Below, one piece after another: positions 4,601-49,725 of a DNA stretch of 64,000 bases. This stretch comes from Amoebophrya sp. A120. Its lineage: Eukaryota > Protista > Dinoflagellata. The stretch spans positions 3,525,675 to 3,589,674 of the forward strand of contig CAJINV010000001.1 of assembly GCA_905178155.1 (NCBI GenBank), in the 5' to 3' direction. Position numbers and translations under genes: made by a program. Positions within the stretch are counted from its first letter, which is position 1. Each line of letters begins with the position of its first letter. Under the pieces are notes generated by a model. That model saw only the letters and a list, made by a program, of their open reading frames with translations. It made no database searches and was not told where the DNA came from.

Positions 4601-7600
4601 GCAGAATCACCGGCTGAGTGCGGAGTACCTGGTGAAAGCGAAAGCGAACGTGAACCTGCAAGACGTGGACGGGAACACGGCGATGCACTTGGCGACGGCG
4701 AAGGGCCATGTAGAGATGATGCTGTACCTGATTCGCGAGGCGCGCGTGCGGCTCGACATCAGCAACGCCGCAAACCGGTACTGGTACGGGATGCACAGCG
4801 AGGCGACCTCCTGGGATGACAAGTTGTTCGGCGACCGGCGGGGGCAGAACGGCAACTGGCTGGTGAATAACCCGTACCTGAACAGCAGTACCCCAGCAGA
4901 TGAAAATGAAACAGCGGGCATCAACAGCACCTCGGCGGTCGTGCCGGCAGACTACGACTTCGATGCGGAGAAAACCATGGCTTTCGTCGCGCCGGGGGCG
5001 CGGCGCCGCGATGAAAACCGGAACCCCAGTCAGGAACTGGTTATGTTGACCAAGCACCCGGCGCCGGGCGGCGGCGGACCCAGCATTGTTCCCGTGGACT
5101 TGCGGTCGGTTGTGGAGCGGCGGAAGGGCGTGCAGCCGCACCAGCGCGGCGGCGGTGGCCTGGGATTTTGCGCGAGTACGGGGAGTTTGATGAAGCTCCG
5201 GGACAAAAGCATGAGCATTCTCGACTCATTGCGATCTGGTGTGGTGATGCACAACAAGAAGCAGCAGGTTCTGGGGGGCGGCTCCTCGTCTACCTCGTCG
5301 TGTAAAAATCATCGGAGAAATAACTCCGTCGACTCGGAGTCCTCCCGGATGAGCTGCGGGAGCACAAATTCGCGGTATTCGGACCCGACGACGACGACCG
5401 CGGCGGTCGACGGCGCAAGCGCGGACTTTTTCTCCACCACGGTGGAGCAGGAGTGGCGCCGGTCCCGCAGGTTATCCAAGGGCACTTCGCTCGGGAGCGT
5501 GCCGGAGGAGCACGAGCACACGCTGGACCACGGCGGAGCGGTGGTTATTTGCGGAGAGCATATGCATGCTTCCTCCAAAGCCGCAACTCGGGCCTCGCGA
5601 TTCTCGGCGATGCCGAGAATCCAAAGTGGCGAGGCGCTGTGGACACTGGACGATGACGGGAACGGTAGTTGTGCGGTGCTGCCACCACCTCCTGTTATGC
5701 CGCCAGCAGGAAATACCCCGGTTCAACGTCCAGATGTTGAGCAGATCGCTGTGATCTCGCATTCGCCTTCAAAAACACGAAAGCTTGATGTGCAGCCCCA
5801 GCTCGGTAGAAGCGCGGACCGCAGGACCTCGGAAATTATTGCCTCGGAGATCGAAGACGAGGAGAACAACTCTGCATCTCGCGCCTCCACGACTTGGCAT
5901 AATGGACCGAGTTGTAGAATTTTTGAGCCAAAAAGTCAACAGCACATTGTCTTCCAAGCGCGAAAGGTCGCGATTCCGCGGAAGAAGGCGAGCCAAGCCG
6001 CCCTGGCGCGCATAAATAGGTCTTGCTCGACGGAGGACGACGCCACGCCCACGAGCGGCACGAGCAAGTTCGCGCACAGCGGGAATGATGCCGTGTCTAC
6101 TTCTGCTACGGGAGGCGGTGCGGGCTCGCAGATGATTGAGATGGGCACATTTGACGCGGGAGCGCCGGAGCGAACGACATCATCAAGCAGCACCTCGGGA
6201 GAAGTAGCGTTTGTAAGCACGCTGGGTGGAGGACCTGGACCACCACCGCATGAGCATTGTGTAGTCGAGGGCTGTAAAAATGCCTCTCGTCTTCGCGAAC
6301 CCGCAAAGTCGCCATCTCCCGAATTGACACGCATCAGTTCCAGGAGCGACGTGGTTGCCCGTGACAACATGATGTCCGAACTAGACGGCGTCGCTGAGGC
6401 TGGTGTCACTGGTGAAAATGGACTGGACAACCACATGAAGAAAGTATCAGAAGAAAATAGCAAATTCGGCGCCTCGGGTGAACAACCTCTAGTACTGACT
6501 GCGCAGCAGGGTGGACGTGAAGAGGGTGACGACAGCTCGACTGTGCGATCTTTATCGCAGCAGCCCGACACCAGTCCGGTTCTTCCGCTACCAAATTTCC
6601 TGCAGGATGCCGCTAATATCACCCGCGGCCGGTCGAGTCCGTGGCCGGAAAGCGGCGGCAAAAATCTGACCCAAGGTACAACAACGACCAGTTCGATGCA
6701 CAGCCAGACGAAAAGTACCACTGCGCAATCGACGGCAAAGCGTTTTTCGAACACGGGCATCCGTGTGAGCACGCTGTTGGACGGCAGTGTGACGCGGGCC
6801 CGGCCGGTGGAAGTGGCGGGCGGCGCGGCGGCCTCGAGCTACAACTGGGTCGGCGTCGACGCCTGGGGAACCGCGTCCACGGTCGAGGTGGAGCAGCCGG
6901 GGCGCACGATCGGAATCGCTCCGGTTCGGGTGGAGCCGACAATGGACGATCCGTACCCGATGCTGCGGACCACGTTGACCCGAACGCATATGGAAGCGTC
7001 AGGATCGAAATCAACAAAATCGAAATGACTTGTGATGCATAAAATCGATATCAGTTGGAGCCTCAGTTTCCAAGTGGCGCATGACAAATTTTGGCAGCAC
7101 CAAAATCCAGTCTGTCGTGCTGTTTGGGCAAAGAGAACTGCTCCTGTCATGCTACTCTGGCAGCACATCGTCTTCCCCCAAACAGGCTTGCAATCGGTCT
7201 CATTTGCCTCCTCTCCAACACAGGCCATGCGTGCCCTACATTTTATGGATTACAAACTTTTTGATTGTGTCGATTTCGATCCTGACACTCCCATAACGCA
7301 GAAGCACTACGTGAACCCCTACTACAGCAAGGACCCGATCGAGGACAACGTAGTCGCCCACATTATCACATTTGAAAACGTCCCCACCCCATAGTTGTAA
7401 TGCAAATCTGCATGCTGAAAATGTTACGCATGCGGAGCCCAATGAGAAGCATTTTTTAGTCGTGTTTTGGAATTTGTCATGCTCCAATCAGCATGGTATA
7501 CTAGATCTGTAATGCTGCTGAGCTACCTCAACCAGCACTACACTACGAGTCCAAATTTGTCATGCAAAACAGCCAAAGCTTGTGGATTTGTCTAGCCGAT

Positions 7601-10600
7601 TCCCCATCTTGACTATGGTATGGGGACGTTTTTATGCAGGATACACATGCTGCGTCCCTGCGGGCTGTCGAGTCTGATTTTCGCCACCGCGGCCCCGCAC
7701 TTCGTCGGAAAGTCGTTTCTCCGCACCGTCGAGGAGGAGCGGCTCGCTCTGAACCCGGAGCAGAACACCGGCCAGGAGGGCAAGTGGAGTCCCACCTACA
7801 ACAGCGCCAAGCGGGCCGGAACGAACGCGGACCAGCCAGACGAGCTGGAGAGGAGACGGTCCGATCGGTCCGGCTCCGACGGGGGCGGGTCCCGGGACAG
7901 CACCCCAAACGTGTTGCTGAGCACCAGAAATTCCCGCTGCAACAGCGCGGACAGCAAGCAGGACCTTTTTGCATCAAAGTGCAAATACAACCAGGACCCC
8001 GCAAGGGGGTTGATGGAAGGAGCTGGTCAAGAGCTACAAGCAGTAGCGGGCCAAAACGAACTACACACGAAAGGAGCTGGAGCAGGGATGTCCCATCCCC
8101 TGTCGTGCACCAGCATCGATTTCAACGGGGGCACCCAGCGACAAGTGCAGAAAATGCTGCTGCGCCGAAACAGCCGCCCACCGCCGAAGCGCAAGGACCC
8201 GCTCGAAAACGTGGACTGGAACAGGCTGGGGCCCTCGGACTTCAACTGCCTGAAGCTGTTGGGTCAAGGAACGTTTGGATCCGTGATCAAGGTCTGCATG
8301 CGGGACGACCCGCGTGTGAATTTGGCAATGAAGATCATCGTGCAGAAGCAATACAAAGTGCAGAACATCGTCAGTCGCTACTACGCCGAAGAGCACGTTC
8401 TGCGAGCGTTAAAGCACCCGTTCATCGTGTTGCTATACGCCTCCTACTCGACCCCGCTCCATTGGCTTCTGGTATGCACAGCTTATTTTATTTTGTGATT
8501 CTGATTGCGAGCCTCTCTTTCAGGAGGTATGTGAAATGAACTTATTTTTGTCGGAGAGTCCGCGAAAAAAGTCTTATTTTATGTCCCAAATAAAGGTGAT
8601 GGAGTACTGCCCGGGCGGGGACCTGCACGACTGGCTCGTGCAAGAGGGGACGCCGGGCTTGCTGCCAATCCAGGTGCTGAAGGCCGGTACGGAAATCTTA
8701 TTGGCGCTGGAGTACCTGCACGGCAAGGGCATCGTTTTCCGCGACCTGAAATGCGAAAACGTGATCCTGTCTGCCCAGAAAACCTGCCGTCTGACGGATT
8801 TCGGGCTCGCCAAGGAGGACATCGGGGCCACCGACACGGACGGGCTGACCTCGTTCTGTGGCAGCTACGGGTACTGTGCCCCGGAGGTGCTGGCGCTGAA
8901 GGACAAGAACCGTCGCGGCGGCGAAATAAAGTCGCCCAGTAGGAACAAGGCGGACGAATTAGTCCGTGGGTTGACGAACGGAAAGGACAACAGCAAGGAG
9001 AGCAAGAAATACGGTACCGCGGTAGACATCTACTCCCTCGGGGTCGTGCTCTACATGCTCGCCACGGGGGGACACATCACGAAAAAGACCGAAACCAACA
9101 AAAAGCGGTCGCCAAACAGAAATGATAAAGCGGCAGGCACCAGGGTGGTCAACACCCCGCGAGATGGTGAAGCGGGAGCAGACGGCGGTAAGCAGGATAA
9201 AAATCTTGCCAGGGCGGGGAGGGCGGCTGGCGTCGACCTGAAGCGAGATCCGTCGGGAAATCTTGTCGTCGACACCGCCGTCAATTCGACGGCCGCGAGA
9301 AATTTTGCAAAGAAGAGTCTGCCGACGTCTATTCAACAGCGACCGCGTAATTCGAGGGAAAAAGGGAAAGAAGACGGTGCGACAGCGGCTTTATTTCAAC
9401 AACATGCACCTCCGGGAACCAAGAACCCGACACTGACGGACCGACCAGCGGTTCTGGTGGACGAAGGCGCAGATCCGCGGAGATTAGATTTTCGGCCGGG
9501 CGACAGAGTCACGGACGTGCTCGGCATCAAAGAGGCGGGTGGAGGAACAGCAGACAGGACTTCTACTAGCAGGGCGAGAGTCAAAATGTCGGTCGCGAAC
9601 GAAAGAGATCCACGTGCTCTGAGGACTGGACGACAAGAGCAGAGGGTTGCCCCATTTGTGGAGACTACAGAGAACCGATCCCGCAGTTCTTCCAAAGCCA
9701 CGGAGGGGAGTAGTTTGGCCGGCCGCCGAGCTGTTCATAGGAATGCCGCAAATAATCCGAATGCAGTAAAGAAAAAGGACCACCAGCACCACGAGGTTTC
9801 CCTGGGCACGGTGGCCGCGGTGCTTTTCCCCTTCAGTAAGAACTTCAATTTTTTGCACCCCTCGGAATCCAGGGGGGTTCTGGACCTCTCGCAAATCGAG
9901 ACCAAGGAGCAGACCGAGCTGCGGTTTCCCCCGAACTCCCCGGAAGACTTGCACTTAGAGCTGGCCTACATGATGGTAAAAGACAATCCCACCATGCAGC
10001 TGCTGGACGAACTGCAGCGGCTGGAAACCCTGAAAAGACAACAATACGCGGCCAAGAAGGCTCTGAACAATACGAATCCTACCCCGGTACCACGGCCGCT
10101 AGCCACCGACAACACCCTGCGGACCACTGGAGGTGGCGAAGTTGGCGACGGGGCGAAAGAAAAACAGCAAAGCGGAAAAATGAAAAAGATAGTGGCCGCC
10201 GGGGAAAAGGAAATGACGGGAACAAGACCGGACCGGAATTCTACAAGGGACGACGCAGCACGACCACACAGACAGGATCTTCGGCATCGGCAGGTGGGGC
10301 CGCCTCCTCCGGCTGGACATCATACTAAAAACCATGTTCAAGAACGGCATGAAGGGACGAGCCAGCAATCTGTTCATTATAACGGCGGTAGCAATCGGAC
10401 GCGGTGGCAGGGTCCCAGCAAGGAGCAGTTACGGTCCGTGAAGGACACCTACGAGCGGTTTAAGCAGCACCCACATTTGCTGGAGCTCGTCTACACCATG
10501 ACGAATCGAGATCCGCACTTGCGCGGGTCCTGCTCCACCGTACGCTCGTCCAAGTACTTCATGAATGTGGACTTTATGCTCGCCTTGGTGAACAGCGGCC

Positions 10601-17080: not shown

Positions 17081-17142
17081 GTTGCCCATGGCATGGGCAA
17101 CAAGCATACGAGTAAAGCATGATGCTTTACTCGTATGCTTGT
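17081..17142. repeat. Two abutting perfect palindromes (10-bp and 21-bp arms, 1-nt G spacers)
   Basis: gttgcccatg-g-catgggcaac (17081-17101) and acaagcatacgagtaaagcat-g-atgctttactcgtatgcttgt (17100-17142). Confidence 0.95.
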
Positions 17143-39431: not shown

Positions 39432-40291
39432 ATGGGCTGGTTTGGTAGCATCTTCGACGTTCTTTCAGGCCCAGCTAATCTTGACGATGGGCGCGACCAC
39501 CATCAGGAGATTACGCGCTCAGGGGCCCCCGAGTTGGCGCACTTGCACCAACAGCAGCTTCCGGGTGCCCGGTCGCGCAACTATCTGGGCAGCCGACGAC
39601 ATCAGCTTTTTTCGCAGGTACAATTGCGCAGTGGCACCAACATCAAGACCTCGTTCGGCACGCAGGACGATTACTACTGGTACTTTTTTCCGGATAAAGA
39701 TCGACAGTCGCTGCTCGAGCGTGTTCCGTTGTTCAGTGAGATTGACAATCTCGGTTTCGTGCCGCAGAAGCTGGACTCCATCGCGCGGCAACAGGGTATG
39801 TTCAGCGATGGCGGAGAGTTCACGACGTGCTTCCGCCGTCCCCTGGCGCAGCGCCGCCCCGGCAAGGGCCAGCCGATGGTATATCCAAGCTTTCGGCAAG
39901 TGCACGCGGCCGGGTTCGAAACGGCTACGGGGAGCAAGTTGGTGCGGTACCTACTGCCGTCCACAACCTATGCAAAGCTTCCCGGTGATCGAGACCGCGC
40001 CATCGGGGCCCGATTTAACCAGGGCACGGCGGATTCGCCGGACTGGATCTGGTGTCTGTGGAACAATATGCATTGCAAAAGTATCGTACTACGTATAAAT
40101 TGCATTACAAATTTTCCCAAGAAAAAAACTCAATTTGTCATGCTATTTCAGGTAGAAATTTGGATTTATCATGCATATCTGCAATTAGTACGAGTGCAAT
40201 ACTTTTGCACAGGATAAGCAAGGTGTACAAGGACGATGTCAAGACCTCAGACTTCATTCGGAAAGACACACCTGGGCTATGGATACTGTAA
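39432..40291 (+). CDS. Hypothetical protein; 2 exons (39432-40066, 40222-40291) split by introner E3
   Basis: Removing the TIR element plus one direct repeat joins …WCLWNK-VYKDDVK…GLWIL*. Confidence 0.6.
40067..40216. mobile_element. Introner E3: short TIR element acting as a non-canonical intron (155 nt removed)
   Basis: TIR tatgcattgcaaaagtatcgtact / agtgcaatacttttgcacaggata. Near-direct repeat AACAA (40062-40066) / AGCAA (40217-40221). Contains ATTTGTCATGC. Confidence 0.8.
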
Positions 40292-44107: not shown

Positions 44108-47100
44108 ATGGAAAGTCGGCGACGATTGCTTCGGTGCAGCAGCACATTTACCTCGGTCCACATGTGGCAGCTCTCGTGCAGCTTGCGGTTCGTGGGAAAA
44201 AAACTTCGCATCATCTGTACTCTTTCTCACCTCCTGCTCCTCTGTCTGCTGTTTCTTCTCCATGCGGGTGAAGCTGCAGAAGGTAAAAAACCAAGCGCCG
44301 AAATAAAATACGGAAATGTGAAGCAGGTGTACGTGGTGATGAGCAGCCATTTTGACGAGGGGTACACCGATTTTGCCGTGCCGGTTCTGAACCGGTACTT
44401 TCAAGAGTTTTTTCCCGCTGCGGTGAAAACGGTGGAGTTGCTGAAAAAACGACACCCGAAAACGGAACACACTCGCAACCCACCACGGTTGGTCTACACC
44501 TTGGACGGACCTTGGCTCGCTAGCATGTACCTGCAGGACTGTGCCTTTTTGCAGAAAAAGGGCGTCATTCCGGGTTTAAGTTGTCCGACGGAAGCAGAGC
44601 AGTACCAGTTTCGCCAAGCGTTAAAAGACGGCGACATAGCCCTCACGGCTAGTCCCTTCAACGCGCAAGTGGAACATGGGAGCGGTTTTCTGTTCAGGTA
44701 CGGATTAGAGCTCGTGCGGGGCTTGGCCGGTGAAGTCGGAATATCGCGCAGTCGTGGGCGCGTCACTTTCAGTCAGCGCGACGTGCCCTTCACGACCGTT
44801 GCTGCGCTGCCGATACTGCGCGAGTACGGTGTTCGTTTGGTCAGCATCGGCGAGAATATTTTTTCTTCGGTCCCGAAAATTCCGGCGCCAATTTTTCTCT
44901 GGAGAGAAAGGGAGCAGACGAAGAAATTACACGGCGGAGTGAAAGCTGAACAGGCTGGCCAAAAAAAATCCGACACGGACGAGAATGAGCAGGGATTCGT
45001 GACTATTTGGAACCGAAATTATGGGAACTTCGAGCTTCTTCCCTCCGGCAAATGGGAGTTCACGAGCGAGCCCTTCCTTCTGGCTGACACCGCCTTGGTG
45101 ATCGCCTTCAAGAACGATAATCAAGGCCCTTTCAATGCGACCGAAGTGGAGCAAATTTTCGGTGCGTTACAAATCTTCTTCCCGACCGCAGCACGCCTGG
45201 AAAACGGGATCGTTTCGACCAGTTACGACACTTTTGCGGAAAAGATTTGGCCGCGCCGGCACTCGCTTCCCGTAGTTTCGCGAGAAATCGGGGACATCTG
45301 GCTTTATGGCGTGCAAAGTGACTTCTTGAAGTCTGCCAGCACACGAATCGTGATGCGCGAGGCTGAGAAGTTCATTTGCGGGAAGACCTCGCAAACAACT
45401 TCTACAGAAACACAACCAGGTCTAGAATTCGATGACGACGGGGGCGAGGCAAAGTCGAAACACGACACCACGTCCTGTTTTGACCATTTCTATTTCAGTA
45501 AAAGAGTCGCCGACCTGCAAAAAAACGACCCCGCGCTCTGGCATTTCATGCGGCTCTTCATTGGCAGCACCGAGCACACCTGGGGGCTAGCAGGTAACGC
45601 CCGGGTTGAGGCAGCGAACAAAACAAACTTGTGGAGCAATGCGGGTTTTGATAACGACCGGAAAAGCAACAAGACCTCTGTCTTCAACGAAGTGGACGCC
45701 GCCTACCTAGAACAGCGAAACTTGCACTTGTTCTGGCCGTTGCTGCGCATTTTGAAACGGGACGCGCATCCACTGGGGGATATCCTTCTAGAGCGCCTAC
45801 GAGCTGAGCTTGGGCTCTCCCTGGACGAAGATCTTCACGTCGGAAAAGGGGAAAGAACAAAGAGAACCGAAGACGCCAGCCAGCTTGGCGGGCCGTCAGG
45901 GGAACCACGCGCGAAGATGCTGCCGCCCGCAAAGGACATCTTGTTACGCGCGGACCTCAACGCGCATTTTTGGTCAGAAGTCACAGTTTCCACCCAATCT
46001 GGTGAACTACTACCCGCAGCCTTCTCGGTGTTGATTCCAGAAAGCGAATTGTTAGCATCCGGCCACCTCGTACTTCGAAAAAACTTCAAAAAGACTTCAA
46101 AGATGAGTTCAGTGCGAGTTCAATACGAACGCCGACAAAATCCTATATTTATCATAAAGTCACTTGACCTGTTGCAAAATCGAAGAGAGCCAGCGTTTCT
46201 GTCGAAAGTCAGCTGACTTTGCGTGGAGTTTGCAATAACTCAAATGACTTTTTGCGGAATTTGCACCAAAAAAAGTCAATTGACTTTGTGCTAATTTCAA
46301 GAAAAGCCAAATGCCTTTTCCTGAATTCGGCTCATTTCACAGACAGGCAGCAAAAGTTTGAAGAATGTGCCCAATTTTTTTGCAGAAGTCAGTTGACTTT
46401 TCTGGGAATTAGCATAAAGTCAATTGACTTTTTTTGATGCAAATTCCGCACAAAGTCATTTGACCTTGCCTGGAAGTTGTCAAAAGTCAGGCGACCTGTG
46501 CCCTTTTTGAAGTCAACGGATTTGGGCAAATTATTGAACTCGGATTAAACTCGTAATGAGCTCGCTTTTGAACTCGTGCTCCGGTCTTTTTGAAAACTCT
46601 AAAAGTACGAGGTGGTCCCGTGCTAAGAATTGCTGGTCTGTTTTGATTACCACGGCGCGTTGCGCGGGGTGTTTCAACATCGGGCAACATCGACTGGACG
46701 ACAGACAAGTACAGAAGGAAGCAAACAATACGAGCCAAAAATCTGCACGAATTGTCCACCCGAACTTGAGCCGGGGTACAAAATTGGGCAATATGTTTAC
46801 CAAGCGTTGAGTGCGGCAAACATGACACAGTTTGTCGAGGAATTCGGGACCACCGACGCTTTTGATTTCAGCAAGCCCGGGCTAAAGAAGCATCAAGCAA
46901 ATTACACAGAGTACTTGCCGCGCGTGCGGGAAGTGATTGTTTCCATCGACAGAGGCGGGAGGGGTAGCACGAGCAAGGAAGCAGAAGACGAAAGTGGTGA
47001 AGAGGAAAATTATGGGACATCGACCACAAGAAAAAAGAATTCCATCACGCTTGTTTTGGACTGGGCGGTCGACTGCAAGTTGACAATGTCACGACATTGT

Positions 47101-47928
47101 CTCAGAAGCGACGCGCCTCTTCCATTCGAGGAATACGGGGCGCCTCAGCAAGTCGTGACGCGTTTCGCAATTTCAATTCCTGAAAGGTTTGACAAGAAAG
47201 CGGATACGGCTGCGGAAAAAGCGCACATCAAACAAGACACGGCTGCCGAGATTAAGCTGGATGTGCTTCTGCAAGACAAAAGACCGACCCGCCTTCCCGA
47301 GGTTTCCTGGATTCTGTTCTCTGCGGGGGTTCCTACAGTGCAACAACATGGTGCAAGCACATCACGCTGCCGGGGCCGAAAGTTAGGCCGCTACGTGGAC
47401 CTGTGTGAAGGTGGAGCTGACGACAGTACTATTCCAGGCTCTTTTGCTCTTGCAAGTCCGCACCAGCACGGAGTTTACAGCGAAAGGCCAGAGAAACATC
47501 CCGCGATCGTCTGTGAAAGGACGACCGTAGAGCAGGCCGCCAGTTCTGACACGACCTCCGCAAAAGTTAATAGCTACCACGCACTCGGCGTGTCTCCACT
47601 GCACACAACACTTGTAGTGTTGTGGGACAAGAAGAAGGAAACGGCATTACTTCCGCCCGCTTTCCCGACCCCGTATAATCCACCCGAATGCTCGCCACGA
47701 TTCGGCTTTGTCATTCACGACAATTTGTGGAACACAAATTATCCAGCCTGGTACCCGATCGGCGGCCCTTTTCGCGCAGATGAAAAAAGAGACCAAAACC
47801 TCCGCGCATCCTGGCAAATTTCAACGCAAATAATCCACGAGGCGGTCGGGGAAGATGCAGCAGTTCCTGCGGAACGAAAGCTGCTGCCCGACGGTAATAT
47901 GGCGGACACCACGGCGGTCTTTGTGTAA
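44108..47928 (+). CDS. DUF5054 / GH38-N-like putative glycoside hydrolase; 2 exons (44108-46051, 46633-47928) split by foldback introner E5
   Basis: Hydrophobic leader, VMSSHFDEGYTD, QRDVP, DNQGP, EIGDIWLYGVQSD, EHTWG, KRPTRLPE, LWNTNYPAW. Confidence 0.75.
46052..46626. mobile_element. Introner E5: foldback-type element acting as a non-canonical intron (581 nt removed)
   Basis: TIR ttagcatccggccacctcgtactt…ttcaaaaagac / gtctttttgaa…aagtacgaggtggtcccgtgctaa. 6-bp direct repeat GAATTG at 46046-46051 and 46627-46632. Removal gives …SEL-LVCFDYHG…. Confidence 0.88.
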
Positions 47929-48423: not shown

Positions 48424-49725
48424 ATGTCTTTCTTCAATTGCCGGATTTGCACCGGTTCGCTTTGGGGAGAGCCGATCAAGCAGCCAGAGCCGAAACCGCG
48501 AGCGGATTTGAACAAGGCAGCAAAAAAGCCCGGAAAAGCAAGTATAGGTCGCATGGTGTGACAAAGATTTAGTTTGTTTTTGATGTAGAGTTGGGCATCG
48601 TTTGCACGCAGGCATGAATTGGATCGCCGGTTATGGAGTGTTGCACACAAATGTTCCACATCATTCTTACAGAATTCACAAAACGGGATGCGAACGAGAT
48701 ACAGGCAGATTTGGCGAAATGGATCGACTTCTTGCATCCGCGCGCGCTCTATCAAATGCAAAAATGTCTGGGTCTGGAAGAATGCAAGATTTGTCATGCA
48801 TATTTCTCATGACCCATGATGCCTGTAATGCATGACCTAGCATCGCAGACTTGTAGAGGGCTTCCTGATGCACCTTCCGCATGAGAAATGCCCTGCCCGT
48901 GTAGCACAAACTGCACCCCTCTTGCTGGTCATGTAATACAAATTTTTTTAGATTCCAAAAACAGCATGACAAGTTGCAATCTTCCAGACCCAGACATTTT
49001 TGCATTTGATACGCTCGACTTTTTCCCAGACCAGGAGGCTGTGAAGAAGGTAGGACTGCTGTATAGCAAGTTCGCATGAAGATGAAGCCGTGATAAAAAA
49101 AAAAAATGAATATGATAGACTCTTTATCAAGAATAAATCTTGGTCTTCAAGAAATTGCTGCAACAACTTTCAGGTTTTATCCGAAATCCTGAAGAACATC
49201 GACAAGAAGGATGATCCGATTTTGGGGAGCGACGAAAAATGCGTGATGTGGCACGGCGACTCGACGAAGGTTAACAACGACGGCGAGGAAAGCCAAGCAG
49301 TTGTGCGGATAGTCAAACCCGGTATCATTTTTTTGCGACGAGAGAGAATGAAATTGAATCAATGCAACTTTCATGCGATAGAGGCTTACTGGTTGTGGTT
49401 TGCATGCTGCGTAGCGCACACACTTTCGTCCTTATTTGATTTCCTAGAGCACCAGACCGGCAAGCAAGGTTGTATCAAAAATTCGACAGGTGACACGCTC
49501 GAGAGTGTGACTTTCGTGAACCGCGTGCTGCCCTTCATCTTCGCGGACGACGAGTCGTTTGAGGAGCTGATGCAATTGCCCAAGGAGCCCTTTGCCATGT
49601 GCTGCGGCAACCAGCTCTGCGTGAACATGTCCCACATCTCGTTCCAGAAGCGCCGCAACTCCAAGGTGGCCGAAGAAGCCGGAGAGCAGGGCGAGGGAAC
49701 ATCGTTCACCGCACAGGCGAAGTAG
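48424..49725 (+). CDS. Small protein with His-Me finger / homing-endonuclease Zn-loop-like C-terminus; about 6 exons, 5' structure uncertain
   Basis: DDPILG…CVMWHG…VNRVLPFIF…CCGNQLCVNMSHI. GT-AG introns at 48542-48611, 48630-48704/48708, 49050-49173 and 49322-49489, plus introner E4. Confidence 0.65.
48750..49011. mobile_element. Introner E4: TIR element within a coding gene
   Basis: Near-perfect TIR of about 50 bp (first 31 bp exact: tatcaaatgcaaaaatgtctgggtctggaag). Direct repeat CGCTC at 48745-48749 and 49012-49016. Confidence 0.9.

Follow-up and report, generated by a model that had tools for sequence, protein, structure and literature searches.

The putative hydrolase locus and its element

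The window analysed here is a 64-kb stretch of the genome of the marine parasite Amoebophrya sp. A120, and all positions are counted within it. Its forward strand carries a putative glycoside hydrolase gene in two exons, separated by an element with the termini TTAGCA…TGCTAA that lies between two copies of GAATTG, as the original prediction had proposed for this 575-bp element and its target-site duplication (TSD):

44108..46051, plus strand: exon 1 of a putative GH38-like/DUF5054 glycoside hydrolase, 648 codons from the first Met
46046..46051, unstranded: left TSD copy GAATTG, 6 bp, exact
46052..46626, plus strand: element bounded by terminal inverted repeats (TIRs), 575 bp, non-autonomous, 40.5% GC, longest stop-free frame 89 codons
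46627..46632, unstranded: right TSD copy GAATTG, 6 bp, exact
46633..47928, plus strand: exon 2, 431 codons and a stop, with the rest of the DUF5054 region and a conserved C-terminal motif

The public gene model P0001 (GSA120T00012727001, Amoebophrya sp. A120) matches both exons at 100%. It maps to 45353-46054 and 46627-47925 and removes exactly 581 nt, that is, the element together with one TSD copy. The model starts at Met 45353 and leaves out about 415 upstream open codons (44108-45352) which are clearly homologous and contain a hydrophobic N-terminal stretch and four of five GH38-like motifs. Transcript coverage therefore looks partial, and the true protein probably has about 1,080 amino acids. 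The gene has its relatives among bacterial GH38-like/DUF5054 proteins (E-values as low as 6e-21); its best matches are apparently bacterial members of this group at 28-29% identity, with one green-algal match, and from these similarities a horizontal origin is possible. Among the 6 and 10 matches listed, there was no orthologue from A25 or another dinoflagellate that could represent the empty site. The exon join aligns gap-free to all three homologues aligned (three of the five first matches) and falls at residue 403 of the homologue P0003, inside the DUF5054 match of that protein (265-529). Exon 1 has five family motifs and exon 2 has two, all of them intact, and the 3237 coding bases contain neither a stop nor a frameshift. 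The 54-codon read-through into the element, used as a protein query, gave no match, which is weak evidence.

Anatomy of the element

The two TIRs are complementary at 20 of 24 positions, with a longest perfect run of 14, and enclose two layers of repeats, the outer of which had escaped the original prediction: five GA(G/C)TTCAA-type repeats per end, spaced by 11 bp and directed inward. The 6-bp TSD is read from a single copy of the element, and the same letters are also compatible with a TSD of 4 or 5 bp and asymmetric ends. The internal features are as follows:

46052..46075, unstranded: left TIR, 20/24 complementary to the right TIR
46071..46126, plus strand: five left subterminal repeats of the GA(G/C)TTCAA type, 11-12-bp spacing, pointing inward
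46156..46318, unstranded: left array of dyad modules, AAAGTCANNTGACTTT, at 46156, 46205, 46236, 46272 and 46303 (spacing 49, 31, 36, 31)
46318..46385, unstranded: central spacer, 68 nt, weakly self-complementary
46385..46524, unstranded: right array of dyad modules at 46385, 46416, 46452 and 46483 (spacing 31, 36, 31), with a degenerate module at 46509
46531..46597, minus strand: five right subterminal repeats in 11-bp phase, with one phase position missing
46603..46626, unstranded: right TIR, pairing with the left TIR

The left subterminal repeats are clearly periodic (lag-11 self-match of 0.53, reached by 0 of 2000 shuffles), and the periodicity of the right ones, taken alone, is not significant, being reached by 12.6% of shuffles. 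For the inner layer, eight palindromic modules had been reported. Nine match AAAGTCANNTGACTTT with at most 3 mismatches, the one at 46303 having been missed, and a tenth, degenerate one is present at 46509; three of the nine match the consensus exactly. All nine lie within the element, the remaining 63 kb of the window being free of them, and shuffled versions of the element yield at most one. The full series of spacings is 49, 31, 36, 31, 82, 31, 36, 31. The best modules (46156-46498) consist of two TTGACY boxes back to back, which we take to be W-boxes of the kind bound by WRKY fingers; the modules presumably resemble paired W-boxes, and the element ends a bacterial CIRCE operator. The GTCA/TGAC core occurs 16 times in the element for 3.4 expected. 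As had been noted, the motif ATTTGTCATGC is lacking from the element; it is present at five other sites of the window.

The description of the element as a near-palindrome with arms reaching almost to the centre was right for its core and too generous for the remainder. The core arms (46240-46317 and 46386-46463, 68 nt apart) are complementary at 70 of 78 positions, and the left half aligned to the reversed right half matches in 199 of 313 columns with a score of 141, against -19 for the best of 300 shuffles; outside the core arms the palindrome is loose. The predicted RNA fold, a check proposed at the outset, is very stable (-246.9 kcal/mol, z of -13.5 on 20 shuffles). With an offset of about 180, the halves also match in direct orientation, in 115 of 179 columns. 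A separate idea, that the element is a dimer of a shorter MITE, was rejected: its centre is weakly like the right subterminal region (14/17, reached by 3% of shuffles, in one of several comparisons). Finally, none of 11 Rfam matches reached the gathering threshold, and those below it were generic hairpin (microRNA precursor) models.

Splice-site options at the junction

Seven removal lengths were tried (offsets -4 to +3 relative to 581 nt), of which only 0 and +3 bring the 711-codon and 430-codon frames together. Among the 581-nt removals, 11 reproduce P0001, with starts from 46046 to 46056, and none of these is GT-AG or GC-AG. The exact removal can be read as GT…TT or AA…AG, and both the GT and the AG arise because the TSD starts and ends with G beside an element of the T…A type. 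The 577-nt GT-AG removal meets a stop after 5 codons, as anticipated. The statement that frame-preserving removal can never be read as GT…AG is correct for the exact 581-nt removal only: two GC…AG options (46044-46627 and 46062-46627) and more distant GT…AG options (e.g., 46002-46627 and 46107-46627) keep the frame, and P0001 uses none of them.

These neighboring sites could allow an ordinary spliceosome to remove the element, with the AG at 46626-46627 as acceptor and either a GC (46044 or 46062) or a GT (46002 or 46107) as donor. With each of the four donors the reading frame runs on unbroken to the gene's end, GC-AG borders are reported for 1% of A120 introns (PMC7789003), and alignment to homologues cannot by itself resolve a junction difference of one codon. 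P0001, however, results only when the removal lies at the TSD or immediately beside it, and the four other elements of the window described below have no GT…AG, two of them restoring a long frame when taken out together with one TSD copy. Canonical splicing thus appears very improbable here. Intron borders in the A120 models were taken from BLAT-aligned transcripts since the canonical tools had failed (PMC7789003), and a non-canonical join in P0001 therefore implies a transcript. The element is very likely a true non-canonical intron, as far as splicing can be judged from one public gene model. The proposal that a transposon-derived element is tolerated here as an intron agrees with the removal of the element and one TSD copy in P0001 and with the intact motifs of the host.

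The same transcript could have another origin, in which the gene was inactivated by the insertion and what looks like a junction is a jump of reverse transcriptase over the hairpin, from one GAATTG copy to the other. A very stable hairpin between exact direct repeats is a place where the enzyme can skip, false introns limited to cDNA are documented (PMC8240250), the public model is truncated at its 5' end and the hydrolase is probably dispensable, by our own reasoning. A dead gene is nevertheless difficult to reconcile with 3237 bases free of stops and frameshifts and with seven intact family motifs. The core arms differ by 10%; if this reflects about 5% drift per arm, 6.5 stops would be expected in the coding sequence (P of none 0.0015); at 2% drift the P of no stop is 0.07, and both values assume that the arms began identical. 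In addition, inserts of this kind number in the tens of thousands in A120 genes, and so many must really be removed in vivo. We therefore regard an artifact of reverse transcription as improbable and retain the reading of a true intron.

The original prediction had gone further and argued from the element for a definition of splice sites by structure instead of sequence. This receives no support from the strand test: over the arms of the five elements of the window, mismatches comprise 8 G-U and 8 A-C, giving no sense-strand G-U bias in what is a small test, and both strands fold alike (-242.8 and -237.3). There is thus no sign of selection on an RNA hairpin, and for structure-based splicing the element brings no fresh evidence. 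Moreover, knock-ins in Euglena showed that a sequence signature is required even where the ends are paired (PMC12501133), and since those ends carry a sequence code, structure and sequence are not exclusive.

Relation to the other elements of the window

Four further TIR elements of the window start with TAT, end with ATA and carry the motif TTTGTCATGC:

6989-7295: TAT element with TTTGTCATGC
7364-7643: TAT element with TTTGTCATGC
40067-40216: TAT element with TTTGTCATGC
48750-49011: TAT element with TTTGTCATGC

Three are flanked by an exact 5-bp TSD and one by copies that match at 4 of 5 positions. The first two lie in an ankyrin-plus-kinase reading frame, which they break at sites separated by 63 coding bases, and their removal with one TSD copy each yields one long frame; for those at 40067-40216 and 48750-49011, removal gave no such clear long frame. 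No slide position gives GT…AG in any of the five elements of the window. Elsewhere in the window, a perfect 21-bp inverted repeat with a 1-nt loop is present in AT-rich DNA at 17100-17142.

It had been suggested that the 575-bp element belongs to a second, independent transposon family. As a family separate from the TAT introners it is plausible within the window, on the one copy seen: one element with TTA ends and a 6-bp TSD stands against four with TAT ends and 5-bp TSDs. Independence is another matter, because no second copy was found and both types end in T…A. In a self-search of the 64-kb window, neither a second copy of the element nor any similarity to the TAT elements was found. The element could instead be a common A120 introner that was locally expanded or rearranged, or a chance inverted duplication, with the modules as by-products. 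Consistent with this are its single occurrence in 64 kb, the T…A ends and the GTCA/TGAC core shared by both types (1 to 5 occurrences in the TAT elements), the match of its halves both directly and inverted, and the frequency of palindromic families in A120. On the other side, its termini, TSD length and internal motifs differ from those of all four TAT elements, TTTGTCATGC being absent, and phased subterminal repeats at both ends together with an exact flanking duplication are hard to obtain by chance. Such an origin is accordingly unlikely.

The patterns of the element were also sought outside Amoebophrya. The TIR pattern had no match in viral contigs or in prokaryote genomes, and the module-pair pattern had none in viral contigs. 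In metagenome contigs the module-pair pattern matched nine loci, by the modules only and not by the element ends. Four of the nine represent one locus, L001:1379-1633 (the same as L005, L008 and L009), a 255-bp palindrome in microsatellite-rich, eukaryote-like DNA. The arms of this palindrome measure 73 nt (95%), and it contains five modules of the AAGTCAATTGACTT type, spaced mostly by 31 bp; its ends are unrelated to those of the element and there is no TSD at the arm ends. Because only modules match, and because this palindrome lacks a TSD, we treated the metagenome loci as convergent, and their 31-bp period is weak evidence since the search pattern forced a spacing of 29-37 bp. Dyad arrays of the form AAAGTCA-NN-TGACTTT with 32-35-bp spacing were seen in unrelated contigs (L002:97-217, L004:1497-1552 and L006:678-763), and their sequences suggest a recurrent protein-binding dyad.

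Proposed mechanism

Taken together, these observations make it probable that a MITE-like insertion in the coding sequence of a putative glycoside hydrolase is removed from the pre-mRNA with one TSD copy. The element would be a non-autonomous, MITE-like DNA transposon that duplicated 6 bp of its target when it inserted. A DDE transposase supplied in trans would have carried out this first step, which we hold with high confidence, and the T…A ends and the 6-bp stagger would suggest an integrase-like enzyme. The 11-bp subterminal repeats, which are helically phased, and perhaps the central dyads, are candidate binding sites of the transposase, as may be expected from the biology of hAT, CACTA and Mutator elements, in which subterminal sites play this role; by this analogy the subterminal repeats would be at least as good candidates as the dyads. 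No transposase was seen in the window, among the 39 proteins and ORFs scanned in Pfam. A WRKY domain match is found in the row of the A120 family fam18 (Gozashti 2025, PMC12130899), and a WRKY-like finger in the missing transposase is a candidate lead.

In the second step, which we think only slightly less probable than the first, the element would be excised in vivo at the RNA level. Elimination at the DNA level, as in ciliates, was rejected by reasoning, as Amoebophrya is not known to have a germline/soma split. For the third step, given RNA-level excision, we lean modestly towards a mechanism in which pairing of the terminal repeats joins the TSD copies and replaces recognition of the 5' splice site, within a spliceosome without detected U1 snRNA whose U2, U4, U5 and U6 would do the chemistry. 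The alternative is a non-spliceosomal route of cutting and ligation, as proposed for euglenids; the spliceosome lacking U1 is somewhat favored because A120 keeps U2, U4, U5, U6 and snRNP proteins. For the central dyad array, the likely origin is an internal duplication of a unit of about 180 bp followed by homogenization of the arms, a duplication being possible because the halves also match directly, and the array is probably not needed for splicing.

A bolder version of this scenario is rather doubtful: that the element represents an undescribed lineage, with TT…AA ends, a 6-bp TSD, 11-bp-phased sites and ten dyads spaced by 31 or 36 bp, unrelated to the TAT introners and yet excised just as exactly. 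If true, a general anti-transposon splicing route would heal every hairpin that is formed by terminal repeats and flanked by direct repeats, regardless of family, length or ends, and this element would be the substrate of choice in tests to identify the splicing machinery.

Comparison with known systems

The genome of A120 is already known for 65% of non-canonical introns and for 29,850 introners in 1,954 families (Farhat 2021, PMC7789003). The same article describes inverted and direct repeats in these introners, proposes that a hairpin joins the exon ends, and reports that neither U1 nor a transposase was detected. The element most likely belongs among these non-canonical, TIR-bounded introners of Farhat 2021 and Gozashti 2025. 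With those described by Farhat in A120 and A25 it shares the genome, the non-canonical ends, terminal inverted repeats (8-20 nt in that study, 20/24 here), a predicted hairpin, a direct repeat over the exon borders, the lack of an internal transposase and its status as an intron in a published model. Its 6-nt GAATTG is above the 3-5 nt typical of A120 direct repeats and within the 3-8 nt surveyed, but the reported A120 motifs start with TAT instead of TTA; the element is also longer than the introner mean of 240 nt, and a two-tier repeat array is not among the features described in the part of that article covered here. A25 introners have TTA followed by two purines, whereas the element has TTA followed by G and C at both ends.

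More recently, 58 TIR-DNA introner families were tabulated for A120 (Gozashti 2025, PMC12130899), three of them labelled palindromic and most having about half non-canonical ends. By our own count, 16 more have an inverted repeat over about 90% or more of a member, and in our reading of the columns two of the 58 have a 6-bp automated TSD call. No TIR element of about 575 bp stands in any of the 58 A120 rows of supplementary file 8, and the table gives no sequences, so that the element cannot be assigned to one of these families; the module and TIR sequences had no match in the supplements searched (all but file 14, over the first 400 characters per cell). The Ginger-like fam38 has a 5-bp TSD and TA/TA ends, against 6 bp and TT/AA here, and the Mutator family fam65 differs in both its 8-9-bp TSD and its GG/CC ends. 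In fam2, 2611 of the 9716 copies start with GT and 2616 end with AG (27% each), close to what is expected for a T…A element in random TSDs, which suggests for this tabulated family that many "half-canonical" ends are TSD accidents.

Outside Amoebophrya, IS3EU/GingerRoot elements (Kojima, PMC10045372) share the 6-bp TSD (here in one copy) and T…A ends, and their integrase-like enzyme fits the homology reported for fam38, but their ends are TA..TA, sometimes TG..CA, and not TT..AA. The nonconventional introns of euglenids (PMC11282704, PMC12501133) are alike in that TIR pairing joins the ends, in their TSD-like junction repeats and in a likely MITE origin; they have a CAG/CTG code at fixed spacing, absent from the ends of the element, and leave the transcript as circles. 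The ends of the element thus depart from the A120 TAT, A25, IS3EU/GingerRoot and Mutator patterns.

Foldback-type elements (Drosophila FB, Arabidopsis FARE) have long modular inverted arms made of tandem repeats, and comprise Mutator-related ones, with TSDs of about 9 bp, and P-related ones, whose TSDs have 7 bp. Our element has such arms and a TSD of 6 bp, and "foldback" describes its shape, not its membership. No prior description of the module motif was found in the literature searches, the part of PMC12787238 covered here holding nothing on these introns, and the motif logos of Farhat (figures S19-S25) may already show the family.

Palindromic A120 families and the idea of hairpin-guided splicing are thus already published (Farhat 2021, Gozashti 2025), and the novelty here is limited to the TTA ends, the 6-bp TSD and the two-tier repeat anatomy. 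Taken alone, the element is one more intron of a published class. It bears on how some 40,000 Amoebophrya introns without GT-AG ends are removed, and on their transposase, and answers neither question. With canonical GT or GC and AG options right beside the TSD junction, it offers a natural competition test. It is a useful outlier, whose different ends, TSD length and two clear repeat motifs can serve to retrieve its family and any autonomous partner from the A120 assembly.
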